Assembly: GCA_038881895.1 (NCBI GenBank)
Contig: JAVZOV010000004.1
Coordinates: forward strand, 34,521-98,520
Direction: 5' to 3'
Length of the DNA: 64,000 nucleotides
Source: Thermoprotei archaeon
GTDB taxonomy: Archaea; Thermoproteota; Thermoprotei; Gearchaeales; WAQG01
The position numbers were made by a program, and so were the translations under genes. Below are positions 606 through 37,988 of this stretch, piece after piece; within the stretch, counting starts at the first letter, position 1; each line of letters starts with the position of its first letter. The notes below the pieces were generated by a model. The model was given only the letters and a program-made list of their open reading frames with translations. It did not search any database and had not been told where the DNA came from.

Positions 606-611
606 ATTATA

Positions 612-2385: not shown

Positions 2386-2462
2386 AATAATCTAATAAAA
2401 GTCGTTATAACTAACATGCAATAAGTTAAATATGTAGTAAAACTATAATACTATGATATTCA

Positions 2463-6129: not shown

Positions 6130-6138
6130 TGCCGTTGT

Positions 6139-6180: not shown

Positions 6181-6228
6181 ATTTTTATTAAAAATTGTTC
6201 GAAATAAAAATAATCCCGCATGTACATG

Positions 6229-6669
6229 TTACAACCACGTTCTTAAAACAATTATACTGTTCGTACCAGAAACTCCCTCAATACTTCTTATAGCATCGAT
6301 GCTTTTATTGACCATTGTAATGTTGTTTCCTCTTATTATAACTAATATGTCATAATCTCCAGTAGTTTCATAAACTGTCTCTACACCATCAATAGCTATG
6401 ATCTTCTTCGAAACCTCTGGTGTACTTATTGGAGGTGTTGTTTTCACCATCACAACTGCCCTTACCTCATTCTTTAGCTCATAATCGATCGTAAATCTTT
6501 TTATTACACCCATTCGTATTAACTTTTCTACTCTCTTTCTTACAGCAGCTTCGCTCACATTTAGCTCTCTTGCTATCACAGTATATGGTGTTCGCACATT
6601 CTTTCTCAAAATACTAAGTATTCTCAAATCCTTCTCATCAACCTTATTCAATAACAGTCCCCCCATCAT
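6229..6669 (-). CDS. lysM: Lrp/AsnC-family transcriptional regulator of the lysine operon (LysM-like)
   Basis: N-terminal HTH (RILSILRKNVRTPYTVIARELNVSEAAVRKRVEKL) plus RAM domain; located between lysZ and lysW as in Sulfolobales lys clusters. Confidence 0.75.
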   Translation of the reverse strand: MMGGLLLNKVDEKDLRILSILRKNVRTPYTVIARELNVSEAAVRKRVEKLIRMGVIKRFTIDYELKNEVRAVVMVKTTPPISTPEVSKKIIAIDGVETVYETTGDYDILVIIRGNNITMVNKSIDAIRSIEGVSGTNSIIVLRTWL

Positions 6670-7435: not shown

Positions 7436-7438
7436 TGT

Positions 7439-8482
7439 TCACACCGGCCTTAAAGGAGGCATCATGAGACCTTCCCCTTCATCAAAACCCATAGATATGT
7501 TAAACGCTTGAACCGCCTGTCCGGCACCACCCTTAATTAGATTATCTAACGCTGCAAACATGGTAACTCTGTTAACACGCTTCTCAAAGGCAAACCCAAT
7601 ATCAGCAAAATTACTCCCAACCACATACTTTGGATCTGGATACGGAGGAAAACCTTTAACAATACGAATAAACTTTTTATCTTTATAAAATCCTGAGACA
7701 ATTTTTAATAAATCCAAATTACTCAATGCATTTTTAACCCAAATATGTGCAGAAGCCAACACACCTCTCACACTGCCTACAGCATGAGGAATAAGGCTTA
7801 CCTTCACAACATTCTTAGAAAATCGATTTAATTCTTGTTCAACCTCAGCTACGTGCCTATGTCCCTCAGCTTCATAAGGTCTAATAGCATGTTCACGTTC
7901 CGGATGATGACTACCCATAGTAGGTTTAGAACCACTCTCGCTGCTGCCAGCTTTTATATCAACAATAACATTATCATAAATTAAACTATTAGCTGCGAGA
8001 GGTGCCAAGGCTAGTATAGAGGCAGTTGCATTACAACCCGGAGATGCTATCAAGCTAGCATTCCGCAACTCATCAAAATGTAATTCAGGTAGCCCATAAA
8101 CAGCCTTAGTCAGGAGATCAGGTTGAGGATGTTCGATTCCATACCAAATCTTATAGAGCTCAGGATCTTTAAGCCTATAATCAGCACTAAGATCAATCAC
8201 TCGCAAACCAACATTTAAAAGGTTTGGAACCAAAGTCATCGAGACACCATGTGGTACAGACAAAAACACTACATCCGATAGGTTCGTTAACTTATTTATA
8301 TCATATTCTGAAAACTTCAAAGAATAAAATCCTCTTAAGTTTGGATGCACAAAAGTTATAGGTTTTCCAACGTATTCTTTAGAAGTCACATAAGTCACTT
8401 CGACTTTCGAATGACTAGCTAAGATCCTTAATAACTCTCCTCCATTATAACCCGAACCACCAACTATGGAAACTCTAACCAT
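7439..8482 (-). CDS. lysY: N-acetyl-gamma-glutamyl-phosphate reductase-type enzyme, LysY/ArgC
   Basis: NAD(P)-binding VSIVGGSGYNGGEL N-terminus and catalytic Cys motif SPGCNATA; the likely start is the ATG at 8482 (MVRVSIVGG), inside the longer listed ORF. Confidence 0.8.
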   Translation of the reverse strand: MVRVSIVGGSGYNGGELLRILASHSKVEVTYVTSKEYVGKPITFVHPNLRGFYSLKFSEYDINKLTNLSDVVFLSVPHGVSMTLVPNLLNVGLRVIDLSADYRLKDPELYKIWYGIEHPQPDLLTKAVYGLPELHFDELRNASLIASPGCNATASILALAPLAANSLIYDNVIVDIKAGSSESGSKPTMGSHHPEREHAIRPYEAEGHRHVAEVEQELNRFSKNVVKVSLIPHAVGSVRGVLASAHIWVKNALSNLDLLKIVSGFYKDKKFIRIVKGFPPYPDPKYVVGSNFADIGFAFEKRVNRVTMFAALDNLIKGGAGQAVQAFNISMGFDEGEGLMMPPLRPV

Positions 8483-8760
8483 AAATACTAAAAATAACTC
8501 CAAAATAAAACATTTTTGTTACATTAAGAACAAAAAGAAAAAACAATAAAACAAATAAAACATTAAAAGCAAACATCACAAGTTTTACAAAAATGAATTA
8601 CACTACTAGCTTGTTATACTAAAGGAAGGAACTATAACCTCAAGTTGAATACCTCAATTATACTAACAATATTATCACGGAACTAAAGTTTAGTCTCTTG
8701 CTGAATTTCTGTAAAGGGGAAATAGGAAATAAAATTTTCTTAAAAATTTCATTTTTATAA

Positions 8761-9012
8761 TGATGAGTCCCAGAAAGCTTAGAGCTTTGCTGGGATGAAT
8801 GGGCAAAGTTTATGATGTTAACCCACTAATTTAAATGTTCCAGATGTGAATGGAAAGAATTTCGTCTGAATTGGAGCGAAAACATAGTCCATAGGATAAT
8901 AAGCTTTATGAGATAGTTGAGTTGTGAGACTCGCAAACCAGCAAATAAAGAAATGAGTGTGAAGTCCATCCTAAACGCTGGGAGTCCCTGCTTTAGCTGT
9001 GGAGAGGTTCGC
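8761..9012. repeat. Interspersed ~240-bp repeat, copy A (near-identical to copy B at 20053-20295)
   Basis: Shares a 5' palindrome (AAAGCTtagAGCTTT) followed by ctgggatgaatgggcaaag, and a 3' core gcaaaccagcaaataaagaaatgagtgtgaagtccatcctaaacgctgg, with copy B. Confidence 0.6.
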
Positions 9013-9310
9013 TACATTGACATTCTCCGTGGCTGAAGCCAGGAGATTCTCGGTTTGTCGTGGGGCCTCCACTCATCCTACCGAGTTCGGGCTGTGCCAA
9101 GGCAGCCCCTGCCATGAGCATATAGCCCATAGCCCGCTCGCTGGAACCCCCCCACCCGTCTTGGATGGGAGCCTTATTCCAGCTTTCGGACGTCCCATCC
9201 ACATCCGAGCGACACGCTCAAGGAGATGGTGGACTTGGATGAATATAAACTTAACGGCGATTCATCTCCACGACTGAAGTCGGAAGCCTTCTCGCCGAAA
9301 GAGTGGTAAC
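9013..9310 (-). pseudogene. tnpB: Decayed tnpB 3'-end remnant. The first ~125 bp is homologous to the 3' end and right end of the intact tnpB at 52797-52921; the rest is GC-rich with no intact ORF
   Basis: 9017-9137 aligns at high identity with 52801-52921, differing mainly in a ~22-nt central segment. The minus-strand frame encodes ...RAMGYMLMAGAALAQPELG, the same C-terminal peptide as the intact TnpB. No TnpB-like upstream reading frame. GC content is far above the flanks. Confidence 0.55.
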
Positions 9311-9347
9311 CTATTAATATTTAAGGTATTGATTTTAATTATAGAAT

Positions 9348-10268
9348 ATGATCGGATCTAGTTATGATTTGGTGGTTATGGGAGATTTATGCTTAGATAT
9401 TGATGTGTATTATTCTAAGAATACTGAAATTTTAGGTAATCAAAGAGAGGCCAAAAAAGTTGATATACTGCTTGGGGGGTCAGGAAGCAATGTTGCACGA
9501 ATTGCCAAAAGGCTTGGCTTATCTGTTATGTTGATCTCATCATTTAGTGATAATCCGATAGGTAATTTGTTAAAGTATTTCATAGAAAGTGCTATGGGAA
9601 AAGAAAACTTGTTATTGGCAGTTCATCATGATAATGAAGCGTATACGGTGATAAATATTGTTGGTAAGAATGGTGTGCGGAGAGCGATTTATCATATTGG
9701 ATCAAAAATTAATGGATATATTGGAAAGGTACAGAGTATTAATCTAAAGATATTTCATATATCAGGATACGCATTAGAACTTATCGATTATGATGAATTT
9801 ATAACACTACTTGATGTACTATCTAAAAAGAATGTCAAGATTGGTTTAGATTTATTTCCAAGAATAAAAAATGTACGGCAAGAATACCTTAACAACATGT
9901 TGGAAAAATTAACATTCTTATTTGGAAACGTTGAAGAATACATAACTCTAACCAATTCACGAAATATAAAGGAAGCAATTAATAAATTAGCTGGCATGAA
10001 GCCTTCTGTAAAAGTCATAAAACTTGGTTCAGGTGGTTCTCTTGCTATCCTTAAGAATAACATTATTAAAGAGAAAGCGTTCAAAGTAAAAGTATTATCA
10101 GTGAAGGGCGCAGGTGATGCATTTATAGCAGGTTTCTATGCTGCATATTTAAAGAATTTGCCATTATGGTTATGTCTTCGCTTTGGAAATTATGTTGCTT
10201 CGTTAGTAGTATCGGGAAATCAGGATATGATATCGGAAGAATTAATAACAAATATACAAACATTGTGA
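9348..10268 (+). CDS. PfkB-family carbohydrate kinase (ribokinase-like; substrate not assignable from sequence)
   Basis: N-terminal GG motif (LLGGSGSNVA) and C-terminal GAGDAF anion-hole motif. Confidence 0.75.
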   Translation: MIGSSYDLVVMGDLCLDIDVYYSKNTEILGNQREAKKVDILLGGSGSNVARIAKRLGLSVMLISSFSDNPIGNLLKYFIESAMGKENLLLAVHHDNEAYTVINIVGKNGVRRAIYHIGSKINGYIGKVQSINLKIFHISGYALELIDYDEFITLLDVLSKKNVKIGLDLFPRIKNVRQEYLNNMLEKLTFLFGNVEEYITLTNSRNIKEAINKLAGMKPSVKVIKLGSGGSLAILKNNIIKEKAFKVKVLSVKGAGDAFIAGFYAAYLKNLPLWLCLRFGNYVASLVVSGNQDMISEELITNIQTL

Positions 10269-10274
10269 GAAAAA

Positions 10275-11345
10275 TTATTCACTTAAAACTATGATAGAAG
10301 CTGCTTTTATTATAAGATAAATTATATCATTTTGTTTTAGTTCAAGCTCTTCAAAAAAACCTCGCGTTATCATAATTTTAATAGGTAAGTTATTAACATT
10401 AACAGTTATCATTATTGTAGGACCGGATGGTTCAATAGCTTCAATTGAACCTTTTAACACATTTCGTGATGTAGAGCGTTCAGGCATGGTTTTACTTATT
10501 AGTATATTTTCAGGTTTAATACCTATCATTATACGGCCATCATGTTTTCCAGGGATAGTGAGTTTAACATTATCAATAAATATTGTACTCATATTATCTT
10601 TACTACTCTTTGCAATACCAGTAAATATGTTCTGATACTGGAGAAATTCTGCAACAAATTTGCTCTTTGGCTTTGAAAATATCTGACCAGTTAATCCTTG
10701 TTCAATAATAGTTCCATTCTTCATTACAGCAAGCATCTCACCCAGATACATAGCTTCTTCCTGGTCGTGTGTTACATGCAGCACTGGTATTTCATAATAT
10801 TTTAATAATTTTTTGATCTCTTTCCAAAACTGTTTCCTTGTAACCAGGTCCAAGGAAGAAAATGGTTCATCCAGTAAGATAACCTTTGGTCTGACAGCTA
10901 AAGCCCTGGCTAATGCCACACGTTGTTTCTCACCACCACTTAAATTTGTCACATAACGGTTTTTCAAATGTTCTAATCCAAAAAGTTTAAGCATTTCACT
11001 AACTCTTTCTTCTCGAACATTTCTAGGAAAACCTCTGGCTAATAATCCATATTCGATATTCTCGTAAACTGTTAAATGAGGGAACAATGCAAGATTTTGA
11101 AATACCATCGAGATATTCCTTTTCTCAGGTGGTAAGTTAGTTATTTCAGTATCATCGATAAACACTTGACCCCCAATAATTTGTCTTAATCCAGCTATAC
11201 TTTCAAGCAATGTAGTTTTTCCAGAACCAGTAGGACCTAGTATCACCATCCATGAACCATTAGGTATTTTGAACGATATATTTCTCAACATAAAAGAACC
11301 CACTTTAACGCTCAAATCCTTAACCGTAAGAACCGTACACACCAC
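10275..11345 (-). CDS. ABC transporter ATP-binding protein with C-terminal TOBE-like domain (molybdate/tungstate/sulfate type)
   Basis: Walker A GPTGSGKTT, signature LSGGEKQRVALARAL, Walker B ILLDEPFSSLD; ~120-aa C-terminal extension. Confidence 0.8.
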   Translation of the reverse strand: MVCTVLTVKDLSVKVGSFMLRNISFKIPNGSWMVILGPTGSGKTTLLESIAGLRQIIGGQVFIDDTEITNLPPEKRNISMVFQNLALFPHLTVYENIEYGLLARGFPRNVREERVSEMLKLFGLEHLKNRYVTNLSGGEKQRVALARALAVRPKVILLDEPFSSLDLVTRKQFWKEIKKLLKYYEIPVLHVTHDQEEAMYLGEMLAVMKNGTIIEQGLTGQIFSKPKSKFVAEFLQYQNIFTGIAKSSKDNMSTIFIDNVKLTIPGKHDGRIMIGIKPENILISKTMPERSTSRNVLKGSIEAIEPSGPTIMITVNVNNLPIKIMITRGFFEELELKQNDIIYLIIKAASIIVLSE

Positions 11346-12153
11346 CTCTCCGTTGAATAATCTTAAGTGTTATAAACAGTATTAGACTCACCAGTACCAA
11401 TAGTGATGTTATCGGCAACGCATTATATAATCCCCTTGTTGTAAATTCATTATAAATAAGAACTGGTGCCGACATACTCCCAGAAAAAGGTCCATAAAGT
11501 ATTACATAAGTTAACACTATCACTGCACCAAATTCACTCATCCCACGAGCCCATGATACTATTAAACCAGTAAAGATAGCATTTTTTATGAGAGGCAATA
11601 TAACCTTATAGAAAGTGAAACCATGCGAAGCTCCTAATGTTCTGGATACCTTCTCTAACGATGGGTCAATAAGTCTGATGGCACTCTCAACTGATCGTAC
11701 ATAAAGCGGAAAACTAACAAATAGCTCTGCAATTACAATCCCCAAAAACGTATCAGTAACTCTAATGCCTTGAGATGATAAAACTGTTCCAAGTAACCCT
11801 CTTGGACCCCACACTATTAATAATGCTATTCCTGCTACCAAATGAGGAATTATCATGGGGAGATCAACAACAGAATCAATAATGTATTTGCCTGGAAAAT
11901 CATATCTAGCTAAAATATAAGCTAACGGTGTACCTAGAATAAAAGAAAGAACAGCAGCAAACGCAGCAGACAAAATCGTAACTAAAATAGCGGAAGTAAC
12001 TTGTGCATCAACAATATAATACATTAAAGTATACGGAGAACTACTTATCAAAAGAGAAAAAATAGGCAACAAAATAAAAAGAACACTAAACAGTGAAATC
12101 AATGAAAAAAACATCAATAAGAGTTTTAAATTGTGCATGATTCCCTCAACCAC
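11320..12153 (-). CDS. ABC transporter permease (ModB/WtpB-like)
   Basis: Polytopic membrane protein immediately upstream of, and overlapping, the ATPase gene. Confidence 0.7.
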   Translation of the reverse strand: MVEGIMHNLKLLLMFFSLISLFSVLFILLPIFSLLISSSPYTLMYYIVDAQVTSAILVTILSAAFAAVLSFILGTPLAYILARYDFPGKYIIDSVVDLPMIIPHLVAGIALLIVWGPRGLLGTVLSSQGIRVTDTFLGIVIAELFVSFPLYVRSVESAIRLIDPSLEKVSRTLGASHGFTFYKVILPLIKNAIFTGLIVSWARGMSEFGAVIVLTYVILYGPFSGSMSAPVLIYNEFTTRGLYNALPITSLLVLVSLILFITLKIIQRRGGVYGSYG

Positions 12154-13186
12154 TAATCGGTGTTATTAATCCAGTATATAAAAGATCTTTCAACTCACTT
12201 GGCAACCCCTCACTACCATAAACATAAGCTGGAGAGAAACTTTTCTGCCCGTTTTTCTCAATAATTTTCCTACCCTCTTCTGATAAAAGAATCTTAATGA
12301 ACTCTATTGCTAACCTCTTATTGGGGGCATTATAAGGTATTGTTAAAGCATACATTATTGGTTGACCACTCACAACTTTACCATTAACTGTAACTGACAC
12401 TTCAGAATATATTTCGGCATATCTTGGATCACCTAGATTTACCTGAGGGGGAAGTCTTACATAATTCAGATGATGCTGTACAGCTAGTGAATAATAAGAT
12501 ATTACATAATCAACTTGTCCAGACTCTAATGGTGCTAATAAATCAACTTCTTTAGGTTTTATTATAAGCTCACCATTAGAATACTTATTTTTATAAAGCA
12601 TATCGTATAGCGTGTGATTATCATGATAATAATACATACTGGCAAGCTTTGTAACCAATACTGCCCTATAACCACTAGGATCTCTATCTTTATCCGAAAC
12701 TCCCACGATAACTCCCGGACGTGCAATTATTTTATACCAATTATTCTCATCAATCTCTGAAGCATACTTACTCCTATTAGTATAAAGAACAACCATTTCA
12801 TTACCTGCAAAAACGATATACCAGCTTGTAAACCTAGGTAGCATGAGGTCACGTATTACATAATAATCAGCAACACCAACAATATCAAACTCGCGACCTA
12901 AATCCGTTACTTGACGAACCGCATCAACACTTCCAAAAGCTTCATCATCGATAACCAAATTAGGATACTTATTTTTTAGCATTCCCTCAATTTGTTGAAA
13001 GGGTATTGTAAGACTACCCGCATGAACCACTCTAAAAACGTTTAAAGAAGCTCCATAAAAACCAATGTTATATCCATCATTGTATCCATATATGTAACCT
13101 ACATAAAAACCGACAACAAGCATTATAACCATAGATATTATCATAATGAGCTTTCCATACTTATCCCACAACGCCACAAAGATCAC
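12146..13186 (-). CDS. Substrate-binding protein of the molybdate/tungstate-type ABC transporter (WtpA/ModA-like)
   Basis: N-terminal membrane anchor followed by a periplasmic-binding-protein-like body; first gene of the three-gene transporter operon. Confidence 0.6.
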   Translation of the reverse strand: MIFVALWDKYGKLIMIISMVIMLVVGFYVGYIYGYNDGYNIGFYGASLNVFRVVHAGSLTIPFQQIEGMLKNKYPNLVIDDEAFGSVDAVRQVTDLGREFDIVGVADYYVIRDLMLPRFTSWYIVFAGNEMVVLYTNRSKYASEIDENNWYKIIARPGVIVGVSDKDRDPSGYRAVLVTKLASMYYYHDNHTLYDMLYKNKYSNGELIIKPKEVDLLAPLESGQVDYVISYYSLAVQHHLNYVRLPPQVNLGDPRYAEIYSEVSVTVNGKVVSGQPIMYALTIPYNAPNKRLAIEFIKILLSEEGRKIIEKNGQKSFSPAYVYGSEGLPSELKDLLYTGLITPISG

Positions 13187-13513
13187 CGATATGTATAACA
13201 GTTCATATCGAATATAAACTTGACTGTGTTTATTCCACCTTGATGATAAACAGTCAACAGTGAAGAGAATCCAATAATATTCGTTAACGTTACTCCCAAC
13301 AAAATACTGACATCAAGGAGAATCGTAAAAAGAACAATACGCCATCATATTTTATAACCCTCTGAAGACGATGCTTTCAGTTGTAGAATGATATTAATCA
13401 TGAATAGAAAAAGTATGGAATTCGTGGCACCGCAAGGTTTATGAATTGCTAGGGAACTCAATCAATCTAAAAAGTTATTAGTGAGCTTGATAATGTTTTA
13501 ATAGTGTAAAAAT

Positions 13514-14593
13514 ATGTTACAGTTTAAACTTCAAACTAGATTTAGTTTCATTTCTAACAATACATTAATCGATGAAGAACTTATTGAATTGCTTAAAGAA
13601 ATAAAAAGAAGCAGTTCTTTAATTTTAGCTGCTAAAAAAATACGCGTATCATATAAGTATGCATGGAAAAAACTCAATGAGACTAGTAGAGCTTTAGGAA
13701 CACCATTAGTAATAACAACAAGAGGAGGAAAATTTGGTGGAAGGACAGAATTGACCATAACAGGTGAAGAATTGTTAAGAAGATATGGACTGTTTACAAA
13801 ATATGCGTCAATAGAATTGCAAAATACTTTTAAAAAATATGTTATTGATAGTGATATAAACATTGTTGGTAGTCATTGTCCAGGCATAGAATTAGCATTG
13901 AAAACAATGGCATCTAAAAACTCAGAATTGAGATTTCATGTAGAAAACACAGGGTCCTTAAATGGTTTAATAAGTATAGAGGAAGGGAAATCTGATATTG
14001 CAGGAATACACCTACTAGATCCAGAAAGTGAAAAGTACAATGAACCATATATAAAGAAGCTTAATCTGAAAAACGTAATACTTATAAAAGGATACAAGAG
14101 AGAACAGGGATTAATAGTAAGAAAAGGCAACCCCAAAGGAATAAGAGGCATGGCTGACATTATCACTAGAAAAGGAATCTTTGTAAATAGAAACATGGGC
14201 TCAGGAACAAGAATACTCTTTGAAAAATTACTCTACAAAACAGCAAAAGAGTTTCAAATTAATTTTGAAGATGCAAAAAATTCTATACGTTATTATCCTC
14301 ATGAAGTCAACTCACACGCTGAAGTAGCACAAATAATACTTAAAGGATATGCTGACGTAGGATTAGGAATAAGAACAGTCGCAGACCAATATGGCTTAGA
14401 CTTTATACCACTAACTCTGGAAGAATTTGACTTTATAACCAATAATCAATCAATTAAGAATCCAGTAGTAAAGAAATTTTTCGCACTACTATCCTCACAA
14501 ACATTCAAACAAAAACTAACAAAATCACTAACAGGGATACATCCAACAGAAAATACTGGAAAAATCGAGAAAATAGATGATCCTCTTCCCTGA
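13514..14593 (+). CDS. ModE-like winged-helix regulator fused to a PBP-like (oxyanion-binding) domain
   Basis: N-terminus (LILAAKKIRVSYKYAWKKLNETSRALGTPLVITTRGGKFGGRTELTITGEELL) matches the ModE N-terminal HTH with its GG..GG motif. The C-terminal domain is homologous to the C-terminal domain of the MoeA fusion at 61725-63701. Divergent to the transporter operon. Confidence 0.65.
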   Translation: MLQFKLQTRFSFISNNTLIDEELIELLKEIKRSSSLILAAKKIRVSYKYAWKKLNETSRALGTPLVITTRGGKFGGRTELTITGEELLRRYGLFTKYASIELQNTFKKYVIDSDINIVGSHCPGIELALKTMASKNSELRFHVENTGSLNGLISIEEGKSDIAGIHLLDPESEKYNEPYIKKLNLKNVILIKGYKREQGLIVRKGNPKGIRGMADIITRKGIFVNRNMGSGTRILFEKLLYKTAKEFQINFEDAKNSIRYYPHEVNSHAEVAQIILKGYADVGLGIRTVADQYGLDFIPLTLEEFDFITNNQSIKNPVVKKFFALLSSQTFKQKLTKSLTGIHPTENTGKIEKIDDPLP

Positions 14594-20052: not shown

Positions 20053-20295
20053 TGTCAAGAAAGCTTAAAGCTTTGCTGGGATGAATGAGCAAAAGTTTAG
20101 ACACGAAGCTAGCTCACTAAATTCTAGATGTTCCAGATGCAATGGAATAACATCTGAATTGGAGTGAAAACATAGCCCATAGGTTAACGAGATCTATGAG
20201 ATAGCGGAGCTGTGAGCACTGCAAACCAGCAAATAAAGAAATGAGTGTGAAGTCCATCCTAAACGCTGGAAGTCCTTGCTTTAGCTGTGGAGTGG
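20053..20295. repeat. Interspersed ~240-bp repeat, copy B
   Basis: Near-identical ends to copy A (8761-9012) with a more divergent middle; 5' perfect palindrome AAAGCTTaAAGCTTT. Confidence 0.6.
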
Positions 20296-20348
20296 CTCAC
20301 AATAGCTATCTTTATATTTTTAAAAAAAGAAGATCTATTGATGATAAT

Positions 20349-20768
20349 ATGCCGGTCGCATTAAAAGTTCGTGATATCATGGAAGGAGGAGTTGTAGTAC
20401 TTGATGGCAATTTACCTGCTATTGAAGCTTTAAAAGCCATGCTTGAAAATCAAGTATGGTCAGTGGTCATTTCTATTAATGATGTGCCATCTGGCGTGGT
20501 GACTGAGCGTGATTTGTTAAGAAGAGTTATTGCTAAAGGTTTTGACATTAATAGAATATTATTAAAGGAAATAATGACATCTCCTTTAATAACAATTAGT
20601 TCTGATGCAACATTAGCTGAAGCTTGGAAACTAATGACAGAAAAAAATATTAGACGTTTATATGTTGTTGAAAAAGGTAAAATCATAGGCAGAGTAACGC
20701 AAACTGGATTATTTAATAAATTATTAGAGGTTATGATTGCAATAAGCTCTATAAAATACTTAATGTAA
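20349..20768 (+). CDS. CBS-domain pair protein
   Basis: Two CBS motifs. The listed ORF start (20241) runs through the repeat and is probably an artefact; ATG at 20349 (MPVALKVRDIMEGG) preferred. Confidence 0.65.
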   Translation: MPVALKVRDIMEGGVVVLDGNLPAIEALKAMLENQVWSVVISINDVPSGVVTERDLLRRVIAKGFDINRILLKEIMTSPLITISSDATLAEAWKLMTEKNIRRLYVVEKGKIIGRVTQTGLFNKLLEVMIAISSIKYLM

Positions 20769-20778: not shown

Positions 20779-22818
20779 TTATTTTGTTTCCTTTTTTGTT
20801 TCTTGTAACGAATTACCTAAAAGTTCTGCTACATCCATTACTTCCATATTGAATTCTGAGGCTTCGCTGCGCAACATTACATTACAAAACGGGCACGCGA
20901 CTACCACCTTATTTACATTAGTTGATGAAGCTTCTCTCATTCTAACTTTGCTTATTCTCTCACCTTTCTTTATATCGAAAAATGCATGTCCTCCTCCGCC
21001 GCCACAGCAAAATGTATTTCGTTTGATTCTATTCATCTCTTTAATTTCAGCAACATTTTTTATGATGTCTCTTGGTTCATTGTAAATGTTATTCCATCTT
21101 GCTAAGTAGCATGGATCATGATAGGTAACACTTTCTTTTGTTTTATTAATGCTTAATTTACCTTCTTTTATGAGCCTTTGTAGTAATATAGTATGGTGTT
21201 CAACCTCTATTTTTACTCCATACTGAACATATTCATGCTTGAAATTATTATAACCATGCGGACAATTAACTAATAATTTCTTGAATTTATATTTTTTAAG
21301 TATGTTTGAATTCTTTTGCACGATGTCCCTAAATAAGTACTCATCCCCTATTCTTCTTGCTGGCTCACCACAACAAACTTCTTCTAGCAAAACTGCAAAA
21401 TTTATATCAGCTTTTTTAAGAATCTTCATCAAATTATAGGCTACACTCCTAATGTTTGGATCGTAACTTGCATTACAACCTAACCAGTATATATAATCAT
21501 ACTCTATTTCTTCACGAGCTATCTCAACATTAAGTTCTGACGTCACAGATTTTAACCATGCCTCTCTATCCGCAGGATTATAACCATAAGGATTACCAGT
21601 TCTCATTATGTTATACGAGACTTGCTGTAATTCAGATGGTGTGTTTTCTCCAGAGGAATATATTCCACGTCTAAGATCTATTATAGTCTCAACCTGATTT
21701 ATTAAGACGGGACATACTTCAACACATGCACCGCATGTTACACAAGACCATATAACATCTGGGTTTATAGAATCTGGCACTAACTTTTTATTAAAATTCC
21801 TTTTATGCATTTCCTTTTTAGTATCAAGCATTACCATCATCGGACTTAATGGCTTCCCAGTGAGATTTGCTGGACATGCATTATGGCATCTCGCACATTG
21901 AGTGCACGCATCAAAATCCATTCGTTGCTTCCAAGACAAATCTGAAAGCATTACAGCCCCTATAGGCTTACCTTCCTCTACCAGCTTGTCCATGTTAGTT
22001 ATTGGTTTGTTAGCTGCAACAACTGGTTCTTCTAGTCTAGAAAAGAACGTATTTAGAATACCACTAACGAACATATGATAGAACTTTGTAAAAGGTATGA
22101 GGGCAATACTAGCAAGTGCTAGTGTTAAATGAAACACCCAAAGTATTCTATAAAACTCAATATAATTATTACCAAAGAGACTTCTAATAGAAAAAGCAAG
22201 AGGATAACCTATTACGTCCCAATCGTCAATCCATTGTAATCTGTAATTTAAAGTATTGATAGCATCCAGTATGAAACCTGTTACTATTATTATTAATAAG
22301 TCGATTAAAATTAGATAATCTTCTCGAGACGTAGGCAAATCTCTGTACGTTTTAAACACTCGTCTAATCAATGCTAATACTATGCCTATAATAGCCAAAA
22401 CACCTGAAATGTTAACCATAAGCTTAAACATTAAATACGCTGAGTCAACAAGAAATCTTGAACCGAAAAATCGTAAATATACATCATACTCTATTCCACG
22501 AAGTATCGTACCTATAAAAAGACCGATCATACCAATATAAATAAACACATGCACTGTGCCTCCTTGTTTCTGTCTTATAACCTTTGCTTGGAGTATGCCA
22601 TATTTGATAAGTCGTGATAATCGTTTTCCAAAATGATCAAAACTTATCCTTTGTCCTCCATAACTCCATAATTTAAAACTTCTGTAAACACCGTAAAGTA
22701 ATATTATAGCTACAATTATAGTATATATGTACACAAGAGATTCTAGATCCTCAACAAGGTTAAAATGTTTAATACCTTCAAATACATATAGAATATTTTG
22801 AACAAAAAACATGTACAT
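20779..22818 (-). CDS. Membrane-bound Fe-S oxidoreductase, fused HdrE-like (membrane, His-containing) + 2x[4Fe-4S] ferredoxin + HdrD-like double CCG domain; candidate ETF-linked quinone reductase (EtfD-like)
   Basis: Five or six N-terminal TM helices with conserved His; CTQCARCHNACP and CVTCGACVEVCP ferredoxin motifs; CCG-domain cysteine clusters (VCCGEP..., CCGGGGGHAFF, ACPFC); directly downstream of etfB-etfA on the same strand. Confidence 0.65.
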   Translation of the reverse strand: MYMFFVQNILYVFEGIKHFNLVEDLESLVYIYTIIVAIILLYGVYRSFKLWSYGGQRISFDHFGKRLSRLIKYGILQAKVIRQKQGGTVHVFIYIGMIGLFIGTILRGIEYDVYLRFFGSRFLVDSAYLMFKLMVNISGVLAIIGIVLALIRRVFKTYRDLPTSREDYLILIDLLIIIVTGFILDAINTLNYRLQWIDDWDVIGYPLAFSIRSLFGNNYIEFYRILWVFHLTLALASIALIPFTKFYHMFVSGILNTFFSRLEEPVVAANKPITNMDKLVEEGKPIGAVMLSDLSWKQRMDFDACTQCARCHNACPANLTGKPLSPMMVMLDTKKEMHKRNFNKKLVPDSINPDVIWSCVTCGACVEVCPVLINQVETIIDLRRGIYSSGENTPSELQQVSYNIMRTGNPYGYNPADREAWLKSVTSELNVEIAREEIEYDYIYWLGCNASYDPNIRSVAYNLMKILKKADINFAVLLEEVCCGEPARRIGDEYLFRDIVQKNSNILKKYKFKKLLVNCPHGYNNFKHEYVQYGVKIEVEHHTILLQRLIKEGKLSINKTKESVTYHDPCYLARWNNIYNEPRDIIKNVAEIKEMNRIKRNTFCCGGGGGHAFFDIKKGERISKVRMREASSTNVNKVVVACPFCNVMLRSEASEFNMEVMDVAELLGNSLQETKKETK

Positions 22819-22824
22819 TTTTTT

Positions 22825-23760
22825 TCACTTGATTGTTTTTTCTTTAAGCTTTTTAATAAATACTGGGAGAAATTGGTATAAATCAGCGATAACACTGTAA
22901 TCCGAATATTTAAATATTGGAGCATTTTTATCCTTATTTATAGAAACTATTACCTTCGCATCTACTGCAGAGATATGTTGGGGAGCACCAGATATCCCTA
23001 TTGCTACATAAAGTTTCGGTCGTATCTTCTTACTAGAAATTCCAATCCACACATCCTCAGGCAACCATTTAAGATCTGCAGCAATAGGCCTACTACATCC
23101 AACTTGAGCATCTATGATTGATGCCAAATCAAAAGCCAACTTTAAATCATCCTTCGACTTAAACCCTCTACCAACACCAACAACGGTATCTGCAGCCTCA
23201 ATATTCACCTCACTCTTCTTCTTCTCTTCAAAACTTACCAGCCTAACATTAGATACTGGAGGTGAGACTTTCTCAATGGCAGCAATTTTCTGAGATATTT
23301 CAAAAGGCTTAAATTTCTTAATTGGTACAGTAACAGCCGCATGTTTTGATGTCACCTCTCTACTTATAGCTCTTCCTCCTAGAATATTTCGTTCAAAAAT
23401 AATATTATTACCATCCAGTGAAACTGAAAGAACTTCTGTTAGCATTGGTAAATTATGCTTGGCTGAAACGCGAGCAAGAATATCATTACCAGTTTTTGTT
23501 GCAGATCCGATCAATAACCTCGGTTTCACCTCATTAAAAATCTTAGAAATAACTTCAGACACCTGATCAGGCAGAACTGCCCCTTCAATAACATATAGTT
23601 TATCAAAACCATAACGTGCTGCCTCGTTTACATCTCCATTGCTAACTGTAATACCTATCATACTGGTGCTGAATCCATTTCGTAACAATTCTGCAACAAG
23701 GCCTGAAGCATCTACTAATAATGAAGGTCTCTCTCCAAAAACTATAACAGTTTCAACCAT
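22825..23760 (-). CDS. etfA: Electron transfer flavoprotein alpha subunit
   Basis: C-terminal FAD-binding region (AVGISGAPQHISAV-type motif) and N-terminal Rossmann-like domain. Confidence 0.8.
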   Translation of the reverse strand: MVETVIVFGERPSLLVDASGLVAELLRNGFSTSMIGITVSNGDVNEAARYGFDKLYVIEGAVLPDQVSEVISKIFNEVKPRLLIGSATKTGNDILARVSAKHNLPMLTEVLSVSLDGNNIIFERNILGGRAISREVTSKHAAVTVPIKKFKPFEISQKIAAIEKVSPPVSNVRLVSFEEKKKSEVNIEAADTVVGVGRGFKSKDDLKLAFDLASIIDAQVGCSRPIAADLKWLPEDVWIGISSKKIRPKLYVAIGISGAPQHISAVDAKVIVSINKDKNAPIFKYSDYSVIADLYQFLPVFIKKLKEKTIK

Positions 23761-23773
23761 TCATATCATCTCC

Positions 23774-24586
23774 TCATATTCTTGGTTTTATAACACCCTC
23801 CTCTATCAGTTTAGAAATTAACTTTTCAGATACTTCATCAAAAGTACTTGCTTCTATTATTATGTTTTTCCTAGAAACCATTAACAACCTCACTGATTCA
23901 CGCCTATGCCCAACGTCAAGTAATTGTATGTTTAAATCGTTCAAAGTAAATTTTTTAAGTGGTTTTGCAAACGCCCTCCGTATTTGCAAGAGCATTGGCA
24001 ACCTAGCCCTATTAATCTCACCAGTCACGCTGATTACTGCAGGTAATGACGCCTCGATCCATTGCAATGAATCCTCTAAGTCACGAAGAACTTTAACTTT
24101 CTTATTCTCTATGTCAAGTTCTATAGCTCGCGCAAATGTTACTGTTGGAAGATTTAAGATCGTTCCAATTCTGGAAGCAATCTGCGCAGAAATAACATCC
24201 ATCGAAGCTTCGCCTGTGAGGTAAAGATCATAATTGCCTGTTTTTTTAACCGCTGATGCAAGTGCTATTGCTGTTTGGAGTGGATTAGCATTTATTAATC
24301 TCTCATCTGTAACCATGTATGCCTCATCAGCTCCCATGGCCAATGCCTCTCTTAATACTGATTCAGTATCATTAATACGTTTTGCAAGCGGTCCCCAAGT
24401 CACAACTGAAAAGACCGCAATTTTTCCACCAAATTTTTCCTTTATTCTTACGGCTTCTTCAACAGCATTCCTATCATATTCACTGATTACAAGAGGTATT
24501 TCCTCGATAAGAAGCTTACCGGAACTGTCAACTCTGATCATGTTAGCATCTAGTGATGCTTTAACCATTACAGCCACATCAACCAT
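23774..24586 (-). CDS. etfB: Electron transfer flavoprotein beta subunit
   Basis: ETF-beta fold with adjacent etfA. Confidence 0.8.
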   Translation of the reverse strand: MVDVAVMVKASLDANMIRVDSSGKLLIEEIPLVISEYDRNAVEEAVRIKEKFGGKIAVFSVVTWGPLAKRINDTESVLREALAMGADEAYMVTDERLINANPLQTAIALASAVKKTGNYDLYLTGEASMDVISAQIASRIGTILNLPTVTFARAIELDIENKKVKVLRDLEDSLQWIEASLPAVISVTGEINRARLPMLLQIRRAFAKPLKKFTLNDLNIQLLDVGHRRESVRLLMVSRKNIIIEASTFDEVSEKLISKLIEEGVIKPRI

Positions 24587-24766
24587 AATACCTCAGTATT
24601 ACATGCAAATCTAGAATTATAAAGTTTTTTATTATGTATTAATAATTTTAAGAAGAAATAATGAAATGCTGTCTTGTATTAAATGTATTGATTTTTGAAT
24701 TAAAATTATTATTATTAGAATAACAAATTTTGTATGAACACTTAATCTAAAGCGATAAAAAATAAA

Positions 24767-25114
24767 TTATGATTTTGCTGCCTCTATCATTTTTCTTAAC
24801 GATGTAGTCTCTATCACATTTCCTGTAATTTTCATTTGACCTCTAATAAATGCAGCCATAGAATCTAATTCGCCTTTCAATATTTTGATAAGAGTTTCCT
24901 TACTCATTGTAAGTGTTGCTGTAGGAGAATTGTGAGAACCCTGAACAACATTCGCACTTCCTTGTTTGAACTCTATATAAAATGGTTCTCCACCTTCTAT
25001 ATTAAACTGAAATATTTTATTCCAACCTGCCATTTCATTCCCCATCTTTAACTTAGCCTTTTCATACACCGCTTGTATTAAAGACTTAATATCTTCGGAC
25101 ATGCTCAACACCAT
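24767..25114 (-). CDS. SCP2 (sterol carrier protein-2-like) lipid-binding domain protein
   Basis: 115-aa alpha/beta protein with an SCP2-like pattern; beta-oxidation cluster context. Confidence 0.6.
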   Translation of the reverse strand: MVLSMSEDIKSLIQAVYEKAKLKMGNEMAGWNKIFQFNIEGGEPFYIEFKQGSANVVQGSHNSPTATLTMSKETLIKILKGELDSMAAFIRGQMKITGNVIETTSLRKMIEAAKS

Positions 25115-25262: not shown

Positions 25263-26465
25263 GTGGTGTTCTTCTTGGGTAGGAATGTGGCTATAATAGG
25301 TGTTGGGCATTCTAAATTTGGAATACGAACCGACGTAAATGTTGCAGAACTTGCATGGGAAAGCACAAAACAAGCAATGGAAAACGCCGGCGTTGATCAA
25401 AAAGACATAGATTATTATGTTACATCAAACGTTGGTGCATGGAGCAGTGAACCATTACCTGCTGTAGTTGTTGGAGAGTATAGCGACCTTGTACCCAAGG
25501 GCACTGTTAGAGTTGAAGCTGCGTGCGCATCAGGTAGCGCAGCCCTAAAACTTGGACATGATATGATAGCTAGTGGAGAAGCAAATATAGCATTGGTTGT
25601 AGGTGTAGAAAAAATGAACGAATCTCCAACACCAACTGTAGTAGAGTTCATTGGTAGGGCTGGAAATTATTTTTGGGAATTTGAAAACTTTGGTCTTACT
25701 TTTCCTGGATATTATGCTCTTTATGCAACAGCGTACATGTCTAAATATGGAGCCACCGAGGAAGATCTGTGCCAAGTTGCAGTTAAAAACCATTACTACG
25801 GTGCAAGGAATCCTAAGGCACAATTTCAAAAAGAAATCACCGTAGAGGAATGCATGAGATCTAGATATATCGCATGGCCTTTAAAATTACTTGATTGTTC
25901 ACCTATAACTGATGGTTCGGCTGCAATAATACTTGCAAGCGAGGAAATTGCCAAAAAAGTTACAGATACTCCTGTCTGGATTAAAGCTATTGGTTACGCA
26001 AATGATACTGCCAATTTAAGCAGACGTGATAATTTCCTTAGCTTAAGAGCTGCTGTTGAAGCAGCTAAGATGGCTTACAAAAAAGCTGGCATAGATGAGA
26101 CTGATCTTGTTAAGAACTTCGATGTAGCAGAAGTCCACGACTGTTTCACTATAGCTGAGTTACTTGCATACGAGGATCTAGGTTTTGTGAAAAAAGGTGA
26201 GGCAGTAAAATTGATCAGGGAAAAACAGACTTACATCGGGGGTATCATACCAGTCAATCTTAGTGGTGGTTTAAAAGCAAAGGGTCATCCTATAGCTGCA
26301 ACAGGAGTCAGCATGGCTGTAGAACTCACAAAACAGTTGAGACAGGAAGTAGAAAGAGAGCGTCAAGCACCTATTAAAAAAGGTATGGCGATAGCCCATA
26401 ATGTAGGCGGCACAGGTCATTATGCATATGTTACAATCTTCTCTCTTGATAAACCAAGGAGGTGA
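25263..26465 (+). CDS. Thiolase-family protein (acetyl-CoA C-acyltransferase / archaeal-type thiolase)
   Basis: N-terminal VAIIGVGHSKFG and active-site Cys region (EAACASGSAA); 4-nt overlap with the downstream DUF35 partner gene. Confidence 0.8.
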   Translation: MVFFLGRNVAIIGVGHSKFGIRTDVNVAELAWESTKQAMENAGVDQKDIDYYVTSNVGAWSSEPLPAVVVGEYSDLVPKGTVRVEAACASGSAALKLGHDMIASGEANIALVVGVEKMNESPTPTVVEFIGRAGNYFWEFENFGLTFPGYYALYATAYMSKYGATEEDLCQVAVKNHYYGARNPKAQFQKEITVEECMRSRYIAWPLKLLDCSPITDGSAAIILASEEIAKKVTDTPVWIKAIGYANDTANLSRRDNFLSLRAAVEAAKMAYKKAGIDETDLVKNFDVAEVHDCFTIAELLAYEDLGFVKKGEAVKLIREKQTYIGGIIPVNLSGGLKAKGHPIAATGVSMAVELTKQLRQEVERERQAPIKKGMAIAHNVGGTGHYAYVTIFSLDKPRR

Positions 26466-27113: not shown

Positions 27114-28322
27114 TTGTTTCCCTTCAACAGTATTTTAGATTTTAAAGTAGAATTAACAAATGAACATGAAATGTTCAGAAAAATGATAAGACAATTTGCC
27201 GAAAACGAAATAGCACCAAAAGTTATGGAAATAGAAAAAACAAACACAATACCAGAAGAACTCATCAACAGAGCAAAAGAACTAGGACTAATGGGCGTTG
27301 GAATACCACCAGAATATGATGGACAAGGTGGAGGGGCTATGATGCTTGTCATACTCATGGAAGAACTTTCAAGAATTTCACCAGCATTCGCAACAAAAAT
27401 CGCAGTAAACCATCTATTTACAACACCAGTACTCATTTTTGGCACAGATGAGCAAAAAAAGAAATATATACCACCAATTGCCAGAGGTGAAGCTTTCGCA
27501 GCTCACGCAAATACAGAACCTGCAGCAGGTAGCGATGTTGCAGGCATACAAGCAACAGCTAGAAAAGAAGGAAATTACTGGATAATTAATGGTAGAAAAA
27601 TTTTCATAACAGGTGCAGATAGAGCTAAATATTTAGTAGTTTCCGCAAGAACAAGTCCACCACCAAGCAGAAAAGAAAGATGGAAAGGTTTAACATTCTT
27701 CATAGTAGAAGCTAACTGGCCTGGTATAAAAATTGGGTCAAAATTCAATGTAATAGGATTAAAAGGCGAACAACCTAACGAAGTGATACTTGATGATGTA
27801 AAAGTGCCTGAAGAAAACGTTCTAGGCAGAGAGGGAGAGGGATTCAAAGTTGCCGTCACAACATACGATCATGGAAGACTTGGGATCGCTGCCCAAGGTG
27901 TAGGTATTGCACAAGCAGTGTTTGAAAAATCATTAAACTATGCGCTACAGAGATACGCATTTGAAAAACCACTAATCTCATTCGAAGGAATAGCTTTTAA
28001 ACTATCAGATATGTTAACAGAACTTGAGGCAGCCCGCATGCTTACTTACTGGGCAGCCACACTAACAGATGCACAGAGACCCGAAGCCATAATGGCAGCA
28101 TCGCTGGCTAAAATGTATGCTACCGAAGTGGCGGAAAAAACCTCAGCACTAGCAATAAAGATTCACGGCGGTGTCGGTGTTGATCAAGAAGCAGGGATTG
28201 AGAGATACTTAAGAGATGCCCTCATAACAACAATTTATGAAGGAGCAAATGACATACAAAGAATAACAGTCATCAGAAGTCTATTAAGACAAGTATTTGG
28301 AACCAGCGTTGATATGATATAG
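27114..28322 (+). CDS. Acyl-CoA dehydrogenase
   Basis: ACAD N-terminal, middle and C-terminal domain pattern; TTG start preceded by a GGAGG Shine-Dalgarno-like motif. Confidence 0.8.
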   Translation: MFPFNSILDFKVELTNEHEMFRKMIRQFAENEIAPKVMEIEKTNTIPEELINRAKELGLMGVGIPPEYDGQGGGAMMLVILMEELSRISPAFATKIAVNHLFTTPVLIFGTDEQKKKYIPPIARGEAFAAHANTEPAAGSDVAGIQATARKEGNYWIINGRKIFITGADRAKYLVVSARTSPPPSRKERWKGLTFFIVEANWPGIKIGSKFNVIGLKGEQPNEVILDDVKVPEENVLGREGEGFKVAVTTYDHGRLGIAAQGVGIAQAVFEKSLNYALQRYAFEKPLISFEGIAFKLSDMLTELEAARMLTYWAATLTDAQRPEAIMAASLAKMYATEVAEKTSALAIKIHGGVGVDQEAGIERYLRDALITTIYEGANDIQRITVIRSLLRQVFGTSVDMI

Positions 28323-30877: not shown

Positions 30878-31279
30878 GTGGGTATCATAGTAAAGGGTAT
30901 AATATTTAGCGGATTAGGTGAAGGTGCCTATTATTTGTCTCAAACAAATTATGTAAATCAAATACAAGAAAAATTAGGCTTCACACCATATCCAGGCACG
31001 CTCAATATTAAAATCGATAAGGATTTAGGTGTTCAGATTTTTAATGAACTCAAAGGATTTAAACATATACGACTAGATCCATTCTTTGATGGTAAACGTT
31101 TTTATGTTGGCGTCTCATGTTACAGAGCAAAAATTAATGGATCAATGTTTGGAGCAGTGATAAGAGCGGATAAAACATACTATGATGAAAGTGTTTTAGA
31201 GGTCATAGCACCTGTATATTTGCGCTCGCATTTTAATTTAAAAGATGGCGATCAGGTAATAGTAGAAATATTAGGGTAA
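30878..31279 (+). CDS. ribK: Archaeal CTP-dependent riboflavin kinase (RibK, MJ0056-like)
   Basis: Small ~130-aa protein with GxGEGAYY and PYPGTLN motifs typical of archaeal riboflavin kinase; GTG start. Confidence 0.65.
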   Translation: MGIIVKGIIFSGLGEGAYYLSQTNYVNQIQEKLGFTPYPGTLNIKIDKDLGVQIFNELKGFKHIRLDPFFDGKRFYVGVSCYRAKINGSMFGAVIRADKTYYDESVLEVIAPVYLRSHFNLKDGDQVIVEILG

Positions 31280-36620: not shown

Positions 36621-37988
36621 ATGGAAATGAAACTTTATTATGACAAAGGCACGATAGTATTAGTTAGCAGGGATCGTATTCCATTACAACTGGTAAAATT
36701 CTTTAAATTTGACCCTAGAATCAATGCGTATAGAAGCTTAGCAATGTATTATCCTGTTATCACATCAATACTTCGAAATTTAAAGATTAGTTTTCTAGAT
36801 AATGTCTTTTATCCTATGGGTTGCCTAAAATTTAATAAACGATTTGATGTGAAATTAAGAGGTTATCAGAGTAGAGCACTAAGCAACTGGATGAATACTG
36901 ATAAACGTGGAATAATTGTGCTACCTACAGGTTCAGGTAAGACACTTATAGGAATTATGGCGATTCTAGAGTTAAAAGAACCAACATTAGTAATCACACC
37001 AACAATAGAGTTGATGGATCAATGGGCTTTGCTTATTCAAAAATATCTTGATGTGGATGTAGGATTATATGGTGGTGGTGATAAAGAATTAAAGTGTATC
37101 ACTGTAACTACATACAGTTCTGCATACCTTAATGCTGAATTAATTGGCAATAGGTTTAAGTTAATAATATTCGATGAAGTACACCATTTACCTAGTGAAG
37201 GTTATAGACAGATTGCTGAACTTTCAGCCGCTCCGTATAGAATGGGCCTTACAGCCACACCAGAGAGAGAGGATGAGGCGCATAAAGATTTAGATCAATT
37301 AGTTGGCCCGATAGTATATAGAAGTGGTGTGAAAGATCTCGCAGGCTCATATTTAGCGAATTTTGAAATTAAAAGGATCTACGTGCCATTGACTAAAGAA
37401 GAATATGCAGAATATAAAAAGCTGAGTAGTATATATGAGGAATATTTCAAGAAACGTGGCTGGACCTTACGGTCATTAAGGGATTTCGAGAAATTTATAA
37501 TGAGAACGGGTAATGATATGAAAGCACGTAAAGCACTTCTAGCATGGAGTAGGGCTAGGTCTATTGCACTAAACTCTTCCACTAAAATGGAAAAATTACG
37601 TGAACTATTACGTTATCACAGAGGCGAACGCATTATCATATTCACTGAACATAATGAACTTGTTAAGCATATTTCTAATGAATTATTAATACCAATCATA
37701 ACACATAAAACTAGCGATGATGAAAGAAAAGCTGTCATGAATGGTTTCCGAACAGGAATATTCAGTACTATAGCAACTAGTAAGGTTCTCGAAGAAGGCA
37801 TCGATGTACCAGATGCAAACATTGCTATAATTCTTAGCGGGTCAGGTAGCAAACGAGAGTTCATACAAAGGCTTGGCAGAATACTAAGACCTAAGGAAGG
37901 TAAAAAAGCAATACTCTATGAAATAATAAGCTCAGGAACAAAAGAAGTACGCGTATCAAAGAAACGATCAAAAGCATTAGGTGAATAA
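36621..37988 (+). CDS. xpb: XPB/Rad25-type SF2 helicase
   Basis: Walker A PTGSGKT, Walker B DEVHH, RED motif (TATPEREDEAH); 455 aa. Confidence 0.75.
   Translation: MEMKLYYDKGTIVLVSRDRIPLQLVKFFKFDPRINAYRSLAMYYPVITSILRNLKISFLDNVFYPMGCLKFNKRFDVKLRGYQSRALSNWMNTDKRGIIVLPTGSGKTLIGIMAILELKEPTLVITPTIELMDQWALLIQKYLDVDVGLYGGGDKELKCITVTTYSSAYLNAELIGNRFKLIIFDEVHHLPSEGYRQIAELSAAPYRMGLTATPEREDEAHKDLDQLVGPIVYRSGVKDLAGSYLANFEIKRIYVPLTKEEYAEYKKLSSIYEEYFKKRGWTLRSLRDFEKFIMRTGNDMKARKALLAWSRARSIALNSSTKMEKLRELLRYHRGERIIIFTEHNELVKHISNELLIPIITHKTSDDERKAVMNGFRTGIFSTIATSKVLEEGIDVPDANIAIILSGSGSKREFIQRLGRILRPKEGKKAILYEIISSGTKEVRVSKKRSKALGE

Follow-up and report, generated by a model that had tools for sequence, protein, structure and literature searches.

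Membrane-bound proteins of the EtfD/EMO family, which take electrons from the electron transfer flavoprotein (ETF), were characterised both functionally and structurally between 2021 and 2026. Here a candidate archaeal member is described, a 679-amino-acid (aa) protein encoded next to etfB and etfA in a 64-kb stretch of DNA from a Thermoprotei metagenome-assembled genome (MAG; assembly GCA_038881895.1, contig JAVZOV010000004.1), which is referred to below as the window. In Mycobacterium tuberculosis, knocking out etfD blocks the acyl-CoA dehydrogenase (ACAD) step, and EtfB is recovered by co-immunoprecipitation with EtfD (PMC8593149). The EtfD of Mycobacterium smegmatis (Msm), deposited as 9OJN, drives proton pumping from butyryl-CoA (PMC13083937). 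The third well-described case is the EMO of Syntrophus aciditrophicus (SaEMO), for which biochemistry and cryo-EM structures of the protein and of the EMO-ETF complex have been reported (bioRxiv 10.64898/2026.08.18.745454).

The published structures describe these proteins as HdrDE-like (PMC13083937; bioRxiv 10.64898/2026.08.18.745454). SaEMO keeps the CCG motif and carries His534-Gly535 at the position of HdrB Cys81, giving rise to a non-cubane [4Fe:5S] cluster, and its His87 and His251 are the proximal heme ligands, with His233, equivalent to Msm H223, as ligand of the distal heme; Msm EtfD keeps this third histidine yet lacks the distal heme (bioRxiv 10.64898/2026.08.18.745454). According to the S. 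aciditrophicus EMO authors, proteins of this kind are widespread among both bacteria and archaea, and Haloferax HVO_0215 and Archaeoglobus AF_0755 appear in the alignments they present.

An EtfD/EMO-type protein encoded beside etfBA

Three genes separated by 13 nt (etfB-etfA) and 6 nt (etfA-etfD) lie on the minus strand of the window (Table 1), exactly where a first-pass annotation of this DNA had placed them. As judged from sequence comparison and a structural model, they very probably form an etfB-etfA-etfD operon whose last product is a membrane-bound ETF:(mena)quinone oxidoreductase of the EtfD/EMO family. With a G+C content of about 34% in the genome, an open reading frame (ORF) of 679 codons having the E-values reported below is not a chance feature. 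PDB matches of EtfA include Clostridioides difficile EtfA (E = 3.7e-34) and human ETF-alpha (E = 8.6e-33), and an AT-rich stretch immediately 5′ of etfB is a putative promoter of the operon's own.

The assignment of the 679-aa protein is carried by homology along its whole length. Compared by phmmer with every PDB sequence, the protein matched Msm EtfD (9ojn_A) with E = 1.2e-81 and 28% identity over query residues 34-338 (membrane part) and 351-675 (soluble part), and the other PDB matches (FrdB, NarI, HdrC and HdrB) cover one domain each with E about 1e-5. An AlphaFold2 model built from 24 homologues (pLDDT 89.3, pTM 0.86) gave the same picture, since Foldseek against the PDB aligned it with 9ojn over the whole chain (E = 4e-35, TMq 0.83, TMt 0.76), and all further matches covered at most one domain with TMq of 0.3 or less. 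An exhaustive HMMER scan retrieved 1,646 clusters (at 50% identity) with E≤1e-30; full-length relatives with E≤1e-99 numbered more than 150. The protein is, in this regard, a new uncharacterised archaeal member of an already known family, and the current understanding of EtfD/EMO proteins is unchanged by it. Its sequence is identical to P0001, which NCBI labels just as 'heterodisulfide reductase-related iron-sulfur binding cluster', and a more specific annotation is now possible.

Other family names were tried and discarded. The scores for TfrB, LdhH, DsrK, GlpC and NarI are far under the NCBIfam cut-offs (177 vs 385 bits for TfrB, the best match, and 52 vs 278 for GlpC). Likewise, no Pfam match to canonical ETF-QO (PF05187), FixC or FixX was obtained in 55 of the 60 window ORFs of at least 90 aa; the earlier claim that a canonical ETF:quinone oxidoreductase is missing thus stands for the 64-kb window, and no claim is made for the whole genome.

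Domain architecture and cofactor ligands

The architecture initially proposed for the protein, with a membrane domain holding conserved histidines, two ferredoxin motifs and two CCG domains, was corroborated by Pfam, hydropathy and the alignment of 24 archaeal homologues (43-85% identity) used here to follow conservation. The profile searches suggested at that time did find both expected domains: the Nitrate_red_gam family (PF02665, NarI-like) matches residues 128-252 over its gathering score (5.6e-9, 36.4 bits vs a cut-off of 22.9), and the Pfam CCG family matches two stretches (5.4e-28). Between them, Pfam 4Fe-4S dicluster families fall on residues 300-371 with E-values down to 9.5e-11. Five transmembrane (TM) segments are seen by hydropathy at about residues 27-45, 88-106, 133-151, 169-187 and 225-243, and the AlphaFold2 model has helices at 23-51, 84-118, 125-155, 165-193 and 204-239.

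Ligands were mapped by combining the HMMER alignment with the residue numbers given for Msm EtfD (PMC13083937). The proximal heme b ligands His78 and His241 of Msm correspond to His90 and His248 of the window protein; Cys301/304/307/422 of cubane D4 to Cys305/308/311/369; and Cys311/412/415/418 of cubane D3 to Cys315/359/362/365. For the non-cubane cluster D2, Msm Cys637/672/673/709/712 and His583 find their counterparts in Cys570/604/605/642/645 and His521. A third histidine, His230, pairs with Msm His223 in the phmmer alignment, which is the distal-heme ligand position. His90, His230, His248, the eight cubane cysteines and the six D2 ligands are invariant in all 24 archaeal homologues, and occupancy by the corresponding cofactors is predicted. 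The three-His pattern is compatible with either one or several hemes, because M. smegmatis EtfD retains the third histidine without a distal heme.

The sole systematic ligand difference with the mycobacterial EtfD is found at the distal cluster D1, where Msm Cys584 is replaced by Gly522 and Msm Thr539 by Cys483. The resulting C/CCG/CPHG pattern is present in 20 of the 24 archaeal homologues and places the window protein, by sequence pattern, in the subtype of Syntrophus EMO and not with the linear [3Fe-4S] cluster of mycobacteria, the cluster chemistry being a prediction. The likeness to mycobacterial EtfD first noticed holds in this way for the whole protein, whereas the distal non-cubane site follows the Syntrophus pattern. 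Membership of the mycobacterial subtype itself failed on these two replacements and on the lack of a long C-terminal extension. HdrDE membership failed as well, with nine CCG-domain cysteines and not ten, Gly522 and His521 replacing the Hdr pattern, and a single fused ORF.

On the outer face of the membrane domain, a motif H18-x4-E23-D24 recurs in the archaeal clade, with His18 found in 19, Glu23 in 13 and Asp24 in 17 of the 24 homologues, and position 110 is acidic (Glu or Asp) in 22 of them. This conservation hints at a functional site on the outer face, and the His18/Glu23/Asp24 motif could act as ligand or helper of a distal heme and quinone site. The same residues bear on the direction of electron flow. 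If the enzyme ran mainly in reverse, electrons would go from quinol through ETF to enoyl-CoA ('enoyl-CoA respiration'), or a reverse redox loop driven by the proton-motive force would operate as in Syntrophus, with quinone reacting at a distal outer-face heme. The SaEMO-type cluster pattern, the invariant His230 and the outer-face conservation would all be compatible with such a mode, but the third histidine is also kept in Msm EtfD, where no distal heme exists, the ACAD/ETF pair of Sulfolobus acidocaldarius failed in the reductive direction, and Pfam scans of the window detected no formate dehydrogenase or hydrogenase of the syntrophy type. We therefore regard the reverse mode as very improbable, and oxidation of ETF by quinone is retained as the probable direction.

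Genomic context

Upstream of etfB, and on the same strand, an SCP2-like gene is followed by a divergent and complete set of beta-oxidation genes, as annotated with Pfam (Table 1). The whole arrangement of etfB-etfA-etfD with SCP2, thiolase, DUF35, ACAD and the fusion of hydroxyacyl-CoA dehydrogenase with enoyl-CoA hydratase is also found in the archaeal loci L081 (83% EtfD identity), L001 (54%) and L082 (52%, on a 1.58-Mb contig). In L084, L087 and L088 (53-55% identity) the etfD-like gene abuts a beta-oxidation cluster and no ETF gene lies closer than 8 kb, and in L090 (46%) etfBA lies 2 kb upstream of the etfD homologue. Altogether, 7 of the 10 other archaeal loci of CPHG type are linked to etfBA and/or beta-oxidation genes, in agreement with the co-occurrence anticipated in the first-pass annotation. 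The position of the SCP2 gene is kept in L081, L082, L084, L087 and L088. At the other end of the operon, a gene for a tandem-CBS-domain protein (20241-20768, plus strand) converges with the 3′ end of etfD across a 10-nt gap, and this neighbour is kept in L081.

Table 1. Coordinates of the features discussed, in window positions (residue numbers refer to the 679-aa protein)
Feature	Coordinates	Strand	Evidence
etfB, ETF small/beta subunit, 270 aa	23774..24586	-	Pfam ETF 3.5e-31
etfA, ETF large/alpha subunit with FAD-binding domain, 311 aa	22825..23760	-	Pfam ETF_alpha 2.7e-27, ETF 1.7e-16
etfD, probable EMO-type membrane ETF:quinone oxidoreductase, 679 aa	20779..22818	-	phmmer 9ojn_A 1.2e-81, AlphaFold2, Foldseek
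N-terminal NarI-like cytochrome b domain, aa 1-262	22033..22818	-	Pfam PF02665, hydropathy, ligand mapping
Region of two cubane [4Fe-4S] motifs (2x CX2CX2CX3CP)	21694..21933	-	Pfam Fer4_9/10/8, mapping onto Msm D4 and D3
First CCG motif, aa 440-525 (C448, C482-C483-G484, C519-P520-H521-G522), predicted distal cluster site	21244..21501	-	Ligand mapping
Second CCG motif, aa 564-650 (C570, C604-C605-G606, C642, C645), predicted proximal site	20869..21129	-	Pfam CCG 564-650
AT-rich stretch 5′ of etfB with TTTATAA-like box and GAGG ribosome-binding site, putative promoter	24587..24766	-	Read from sequence
SCP2 sterol/lipid-carrier-like protein, upstream of etfB	24767..25114	-	Pfam SCP2 8.9e-16
Thiolase, 400 aa, start of divergent beta-oxidation cluster	25263-26465	+	Pfam Thiolase_N/C_1
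DUF35/ChsH2-type OB-fold partner, 192 aa	26462-27040	+	Pfam zf-ChsH2/OB_ChsH2_C
Acyl-CoA dehydrogenase, 402 aa, presumed ETF electron donor	27114..28322	+	Pfam Acyl-CoA_dh_N/M/1
3-hydroxyacyl-CoA dehydrogenase fused to enoyl-CoA hydratase, 662 aa	28336..30324	+	Pfam 3HCDH_N/3HCDH/ECH_1
Second acyl-CoA dehydrogenase, 419 aa	50941..52200	+	Pfam Acyl-CoA_dh_1/N/M

A wider genome scan placed etfAB within 10 kb of the etfD homologue in 13 of 75 mostly bacterial loci, and nearly all of these bacterial loci show a C-[T/N/S]-G / C-P-H-C motif of the mycobacterial type. The C/CCG/CPHG pattern occurs in nine sequences of the locus sample, all of them archaeal. This sample is small and was picked via two peptides of the D2 region, so its proportions are indicative only. 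Within the small archaeal part of it, the motif of the distal cluster (CPHG, CPHC or C-T-G) tracks the gene context, and the distinction might offer annotators an inexpensive way to tell ETF-linked members from other paralogues.

Three archaeal loci carry a full Hdr-like CPHC motif, and none of them is linked to ETF or beta-oxidation genes. In L083, the homologue (8001-9992, 46% identity) is flanked by two pairs of hdrC/hdrB-like genes, by a gene resembling hdrA and by one for a molybdopterin oxidoreductase, these neighbours occupying 143-3530 and 10031-13690. In L089 (4730-6727) it is found among genes for flavoenzymes resembling DAO/sarcosine oxidase, and no relevant neighbour was found at the third locus, L003.

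Such relatives bring to the fore the idea that the window protein works as a (hetero)disulfide or thiol reductase of HdrDE type, or as the partner in some other CCG-domain system (GlpC, LutA, GlcF or DsrMK-like), and lies beside etfBA by chance. Its domains are homologous to HdrB/HdrC and NarI, its best NCBIfam match is TfrB with 177 bits, and a 46%-identical relative adjoins hdrC-, hdrB- and hdrA-like genes. On the other hand, all NCBIfam scores fall far below their cut-offs, His521 sits where the coenzyme M site is blocked in EMO, and Gly522 stands in place of the bridging Cys81 of HdrB. Moreover, no GlpAB, LutBC, GlcDE or Dsr genes were recovered by Pfam scans in the window, and the gene order shared with etfBA and the beta-oxidation genes recurs in relatives. 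We regard this reading as very unlikely. The concern raised at the outset, that the protein might fall into the GlpC or lactate-utilisation families and show no co-occurrence with ETF, was likewise not borne out. The original proposal of a fused HdrE/HdrD-like protein acting as an EtfD-type partner of ETF is upheld by the full-length homology to 9OJN, the ligands and the synteny.

A divergent ETF

The ETF itself departs from the described types. In EtfB, the N-terminal motif KQVPDT (or KRVIDY), which reportedly goes back to a definition by Garcia Costas in 2017, is replaced by KASLDAN (residues 9-15, from K9), and the motif DGDTAQVGP, associated with the bifurcating FAD (Bf-FAD), by MDVISAQIAS (residues 129-138, from M129). 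Typing drew on motifs in PDB alignments, on this N-terminal motif and on one published statistic. The latter concerns Asp93′, which is 100% conserved in group-II bifurcating ETFs (PMC10279923) and corresponds to Asn101 in the window EtfB. As judged from these motifs EtfB is a divergent archaeal type. Membership of group II was considered and failed on MDVISAQIAS for DGDTAQVGP and on Asn101 for Asp93′. A five-residue insertion in EtfB, TWGPLAKRINDTE, is common only to the syntenic archaeal loci L001, L081 and L082. Three stretches of the subunit (residues 9-15, 63-75 and 125-138) delimit a clade-specific type shared only with these same loci and departing from both the AMP-type and the bifurcating-FAD-type consensus. 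A further observation on flavins is a gene (30878-31279, plus strand; Pfam 3.2e-39) for the CTP-dependent riboflavin kinase of archaeal FMN synthesis, some 550 bp past the beta-oxidation cluster, where it adjoins several flavoenzyme genes.

These features have to be weighed against the possibility that EtfAB is bifurcating or oxidises NADH, in which case EtfAB-EtfD would be a functional counterpart of EtfABCX/FixABCX, EtfD providing the high-potential branch to quinone, and not a simple shuttle from ACAD to quinone. Among solved structures, the nearest relatives of EtfB are indeed bifurcating ETFs, with CarD (2e-29), C. difficile EtfB (7e-26), Thermotoga maritima EtfABCX (1.5e-22) and Acidaminococcus fermentans (1.2e-21) ahead of the Paracoccus (2e-20) and human (6e-15) proteins, and the Saci_0315 ETF of S. 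acidocaldarius accepts electrons from NADH. However, all three diagnostic positions of EtfB are altered in the way described, EtfA lacks an N-terminal ferredoxin domain and the neighbouring genes are a plain beta-oxidation set, making a bifurcating ETF improbable here.

A more specific extension of the EtfD/EMO assignment would be that the Thermoprotei clade forms a distinct EMO subtype, combining a Syntrophus-type [4Fe:5S] site, the outer-face residues His18/Glu23/Asp24 and a clade-specific ETF with an unusual nucleotide pocket in EtfB. This we put forward tentatively and hold to be rather unlikely. If true, thermophilic archaea would couple beta-oxidation to quinones via an outer-face site sensitive to the membrane potential, or through an ETF with unusual cofactors.

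Proposed electron path

The most likely function of the system, as read from sequence and gene order, is to feed the quinone pool of a hot-spring-type archaeon with electrons released in fatty-acid oxidation. This connection had been suggested at first sight and gains support from homology, the operon and the beta-oxidation neighbours, with electron flow proposed as follows. The acyl-CoA dehydrogenases, one in the divergent cluster and the second at 50.9 kb, would reduce the FAD of EtfA. The ETF would then dock via EtfB onto that domain of the 679-aa protein which carries the non-cubane clusters on the cytoplasmic side, a step borrowed from the Syntrophus EMO-ETF complex and the M. tuberculosis pull-down. 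Electrons would enter at the distal CCG site (C448/C482/C483/C519), predicted to hold a [4Fe:5S]-like cluster as in Syntrophus EMO, and move on to the proximal CCG site (C570/C604/C605/C642/C645/H521), a predicted non-cubane [4Fe-4S] cluster. From there, transfer via the two cubane [4Fe-4S] clusters would lead to heme b (His90/His248), with a distal heme at His230 as a possible further stop, and end at a membrane quinone.

Several observations weigh against this assignment. In three of the 10 other archaeal CPHG-type loci (L009, L085 and L086), the 8-10 kb examined are free of both etfBA and beta-oxidation genes, and the CPHC relatives with 45-46% identity lie in contexts other than ETF (L083 and L089), from which it follows that the family is not mono-functional. 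In the membrane domain, Phe85 and Phe230, which stack on menaquinone in Msm, correspond to Met97 and Ser237, and two of the three arginines contacting the heme propionates of Msm EtfD are not kept. The motifs of EtfB, finally, make the ETF an atypical partner.

Other features of the window

Away from the operon, the window holds a LysW-type cluster for lysine/arginine biosynthesis (3966-8503, minus strand) comprising a class-III aminotransferase, a LysX/RimK ATP-grasp protein, an amino-acid kinase and a semialdehyde dehydrogenase, with an Lrp/AsnC regulator inside it at 6229-6669. A stand-alone Cas6 gene (1483-2385) and an XPB helicase gene paired with a DUF790 (Bax1-type) gene (36621-39429) are found on the plus strand. 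Two ORFs resemble TnpB/IS605 OrfB, with a Cas12f1-like TNB domain (52846-53922, minus strand, and 60405-61592, plus strand), the first of which coincides with a local rise in G+C to 0.42 vs a background of about 0.34. Three long ORFs, at 44903-46624 (573 aa), 48896-50419 (507 aa) and 54783-56369 (528 aa), gave no Pfam match at E≤1e-5.

Comparison with known systems

The closest described system is SaEMO (SYN_02638, 706 aa). Like the window protein, it is a single polypeptide with five TM helices, three conserved histidines and two cubane clusters, and in both the proximal non-cubane cluster has a histidine ligand and EtfAB is the adjacent partner (cluster and partnership being predictions in the archaeal case), and a long disordered C-terminal tail is absent. 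H534/G535 of SaEMO correspond to H521/G522 (CPHG, with CCG retained), a match that follows the published description of SaEMO. Three 706-aa representatives (P0151, P0174 and P0238) were considered as candidates for SaEMO itself and turned out to belong to other subtypes. SaEMO comes from a syntrophic deltaproteobacterium whereas the window derives from a Thermoprotei MAG, and the physiological direction and the quinone used probably differ. SaEMO also has a distal twin heme b, stacked distal hemes being reported for HdrDE too, and an outer-face methylmenaquinone (MMK) site formed by E22, H109 and E187; H18, E23 and D24, conserved in the archaeal clade, are at most candidate counterparts of that site.

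The mycobacterial proteins (MSMEG_0690 and Rv0338c) share with the window protein the heme bP ligands, the cubane clusters and a D2 site with histidine, and their role as ETF oxidant in beta-oxidation is the one proposed here. At the distal D1, however, Msm EtfD has C503, C538-T539, C581 and C584 (C-T-G plus C-P-H-C) holding a linear [3Fe-4S] cluster, whereas the window protein has C-C-G plus C-P-H-G. Msm EtfD reaches 1042 aa with a disordered C-terminal region of about 30 kDa, in contrast to the 679 aa of the window protein, which ends four residues past the aligned core. Furthermore, mycobacterial etfD lies outside any etfBA operon, unlike its archaeal counterpart.

Methanogen HdrDE is built from the same three modules, namely a NarI-like cytochrome b, an HdrC-like dicluster and an HdrB-like double CCG domain. 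It consists, however, of two subunits with ten CCG-domain cysteines, whereas the window protein is one polypeptide with nine, has a histidine in the substrate position and lacks a methanogenic context. In this comparison, the PDB search with the C-terminal domain aligned HdrB over the second CCG motif only, and the first motif was compared with Hdr via published equivalences.

Canonical ETF-QO (ETFDH, PF05187) and FixCX/EtfCX are non-homologous monotopic proteins with FAD and a single [4Fe-4S] cluster, to which the same role, re-oxidation of ETF by quinone, is attributed. In S. acidocaldarius the types of beta-oxidation enzymes match the window set, and the domain order of the fusion of hydroxyacyl-CoA dehydrogenase with enoyl-CoA hydratase is that of Saci_1109, but the ETF there is the fused alpha-beta protein Saci_0315. 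Seen against these systems, the most likely route of ETF re-oxidation in this archaeal group is of the EtfD/EMO type, and not the one based on ETF-QO or on the fused ETF of S. acidocaldarius.

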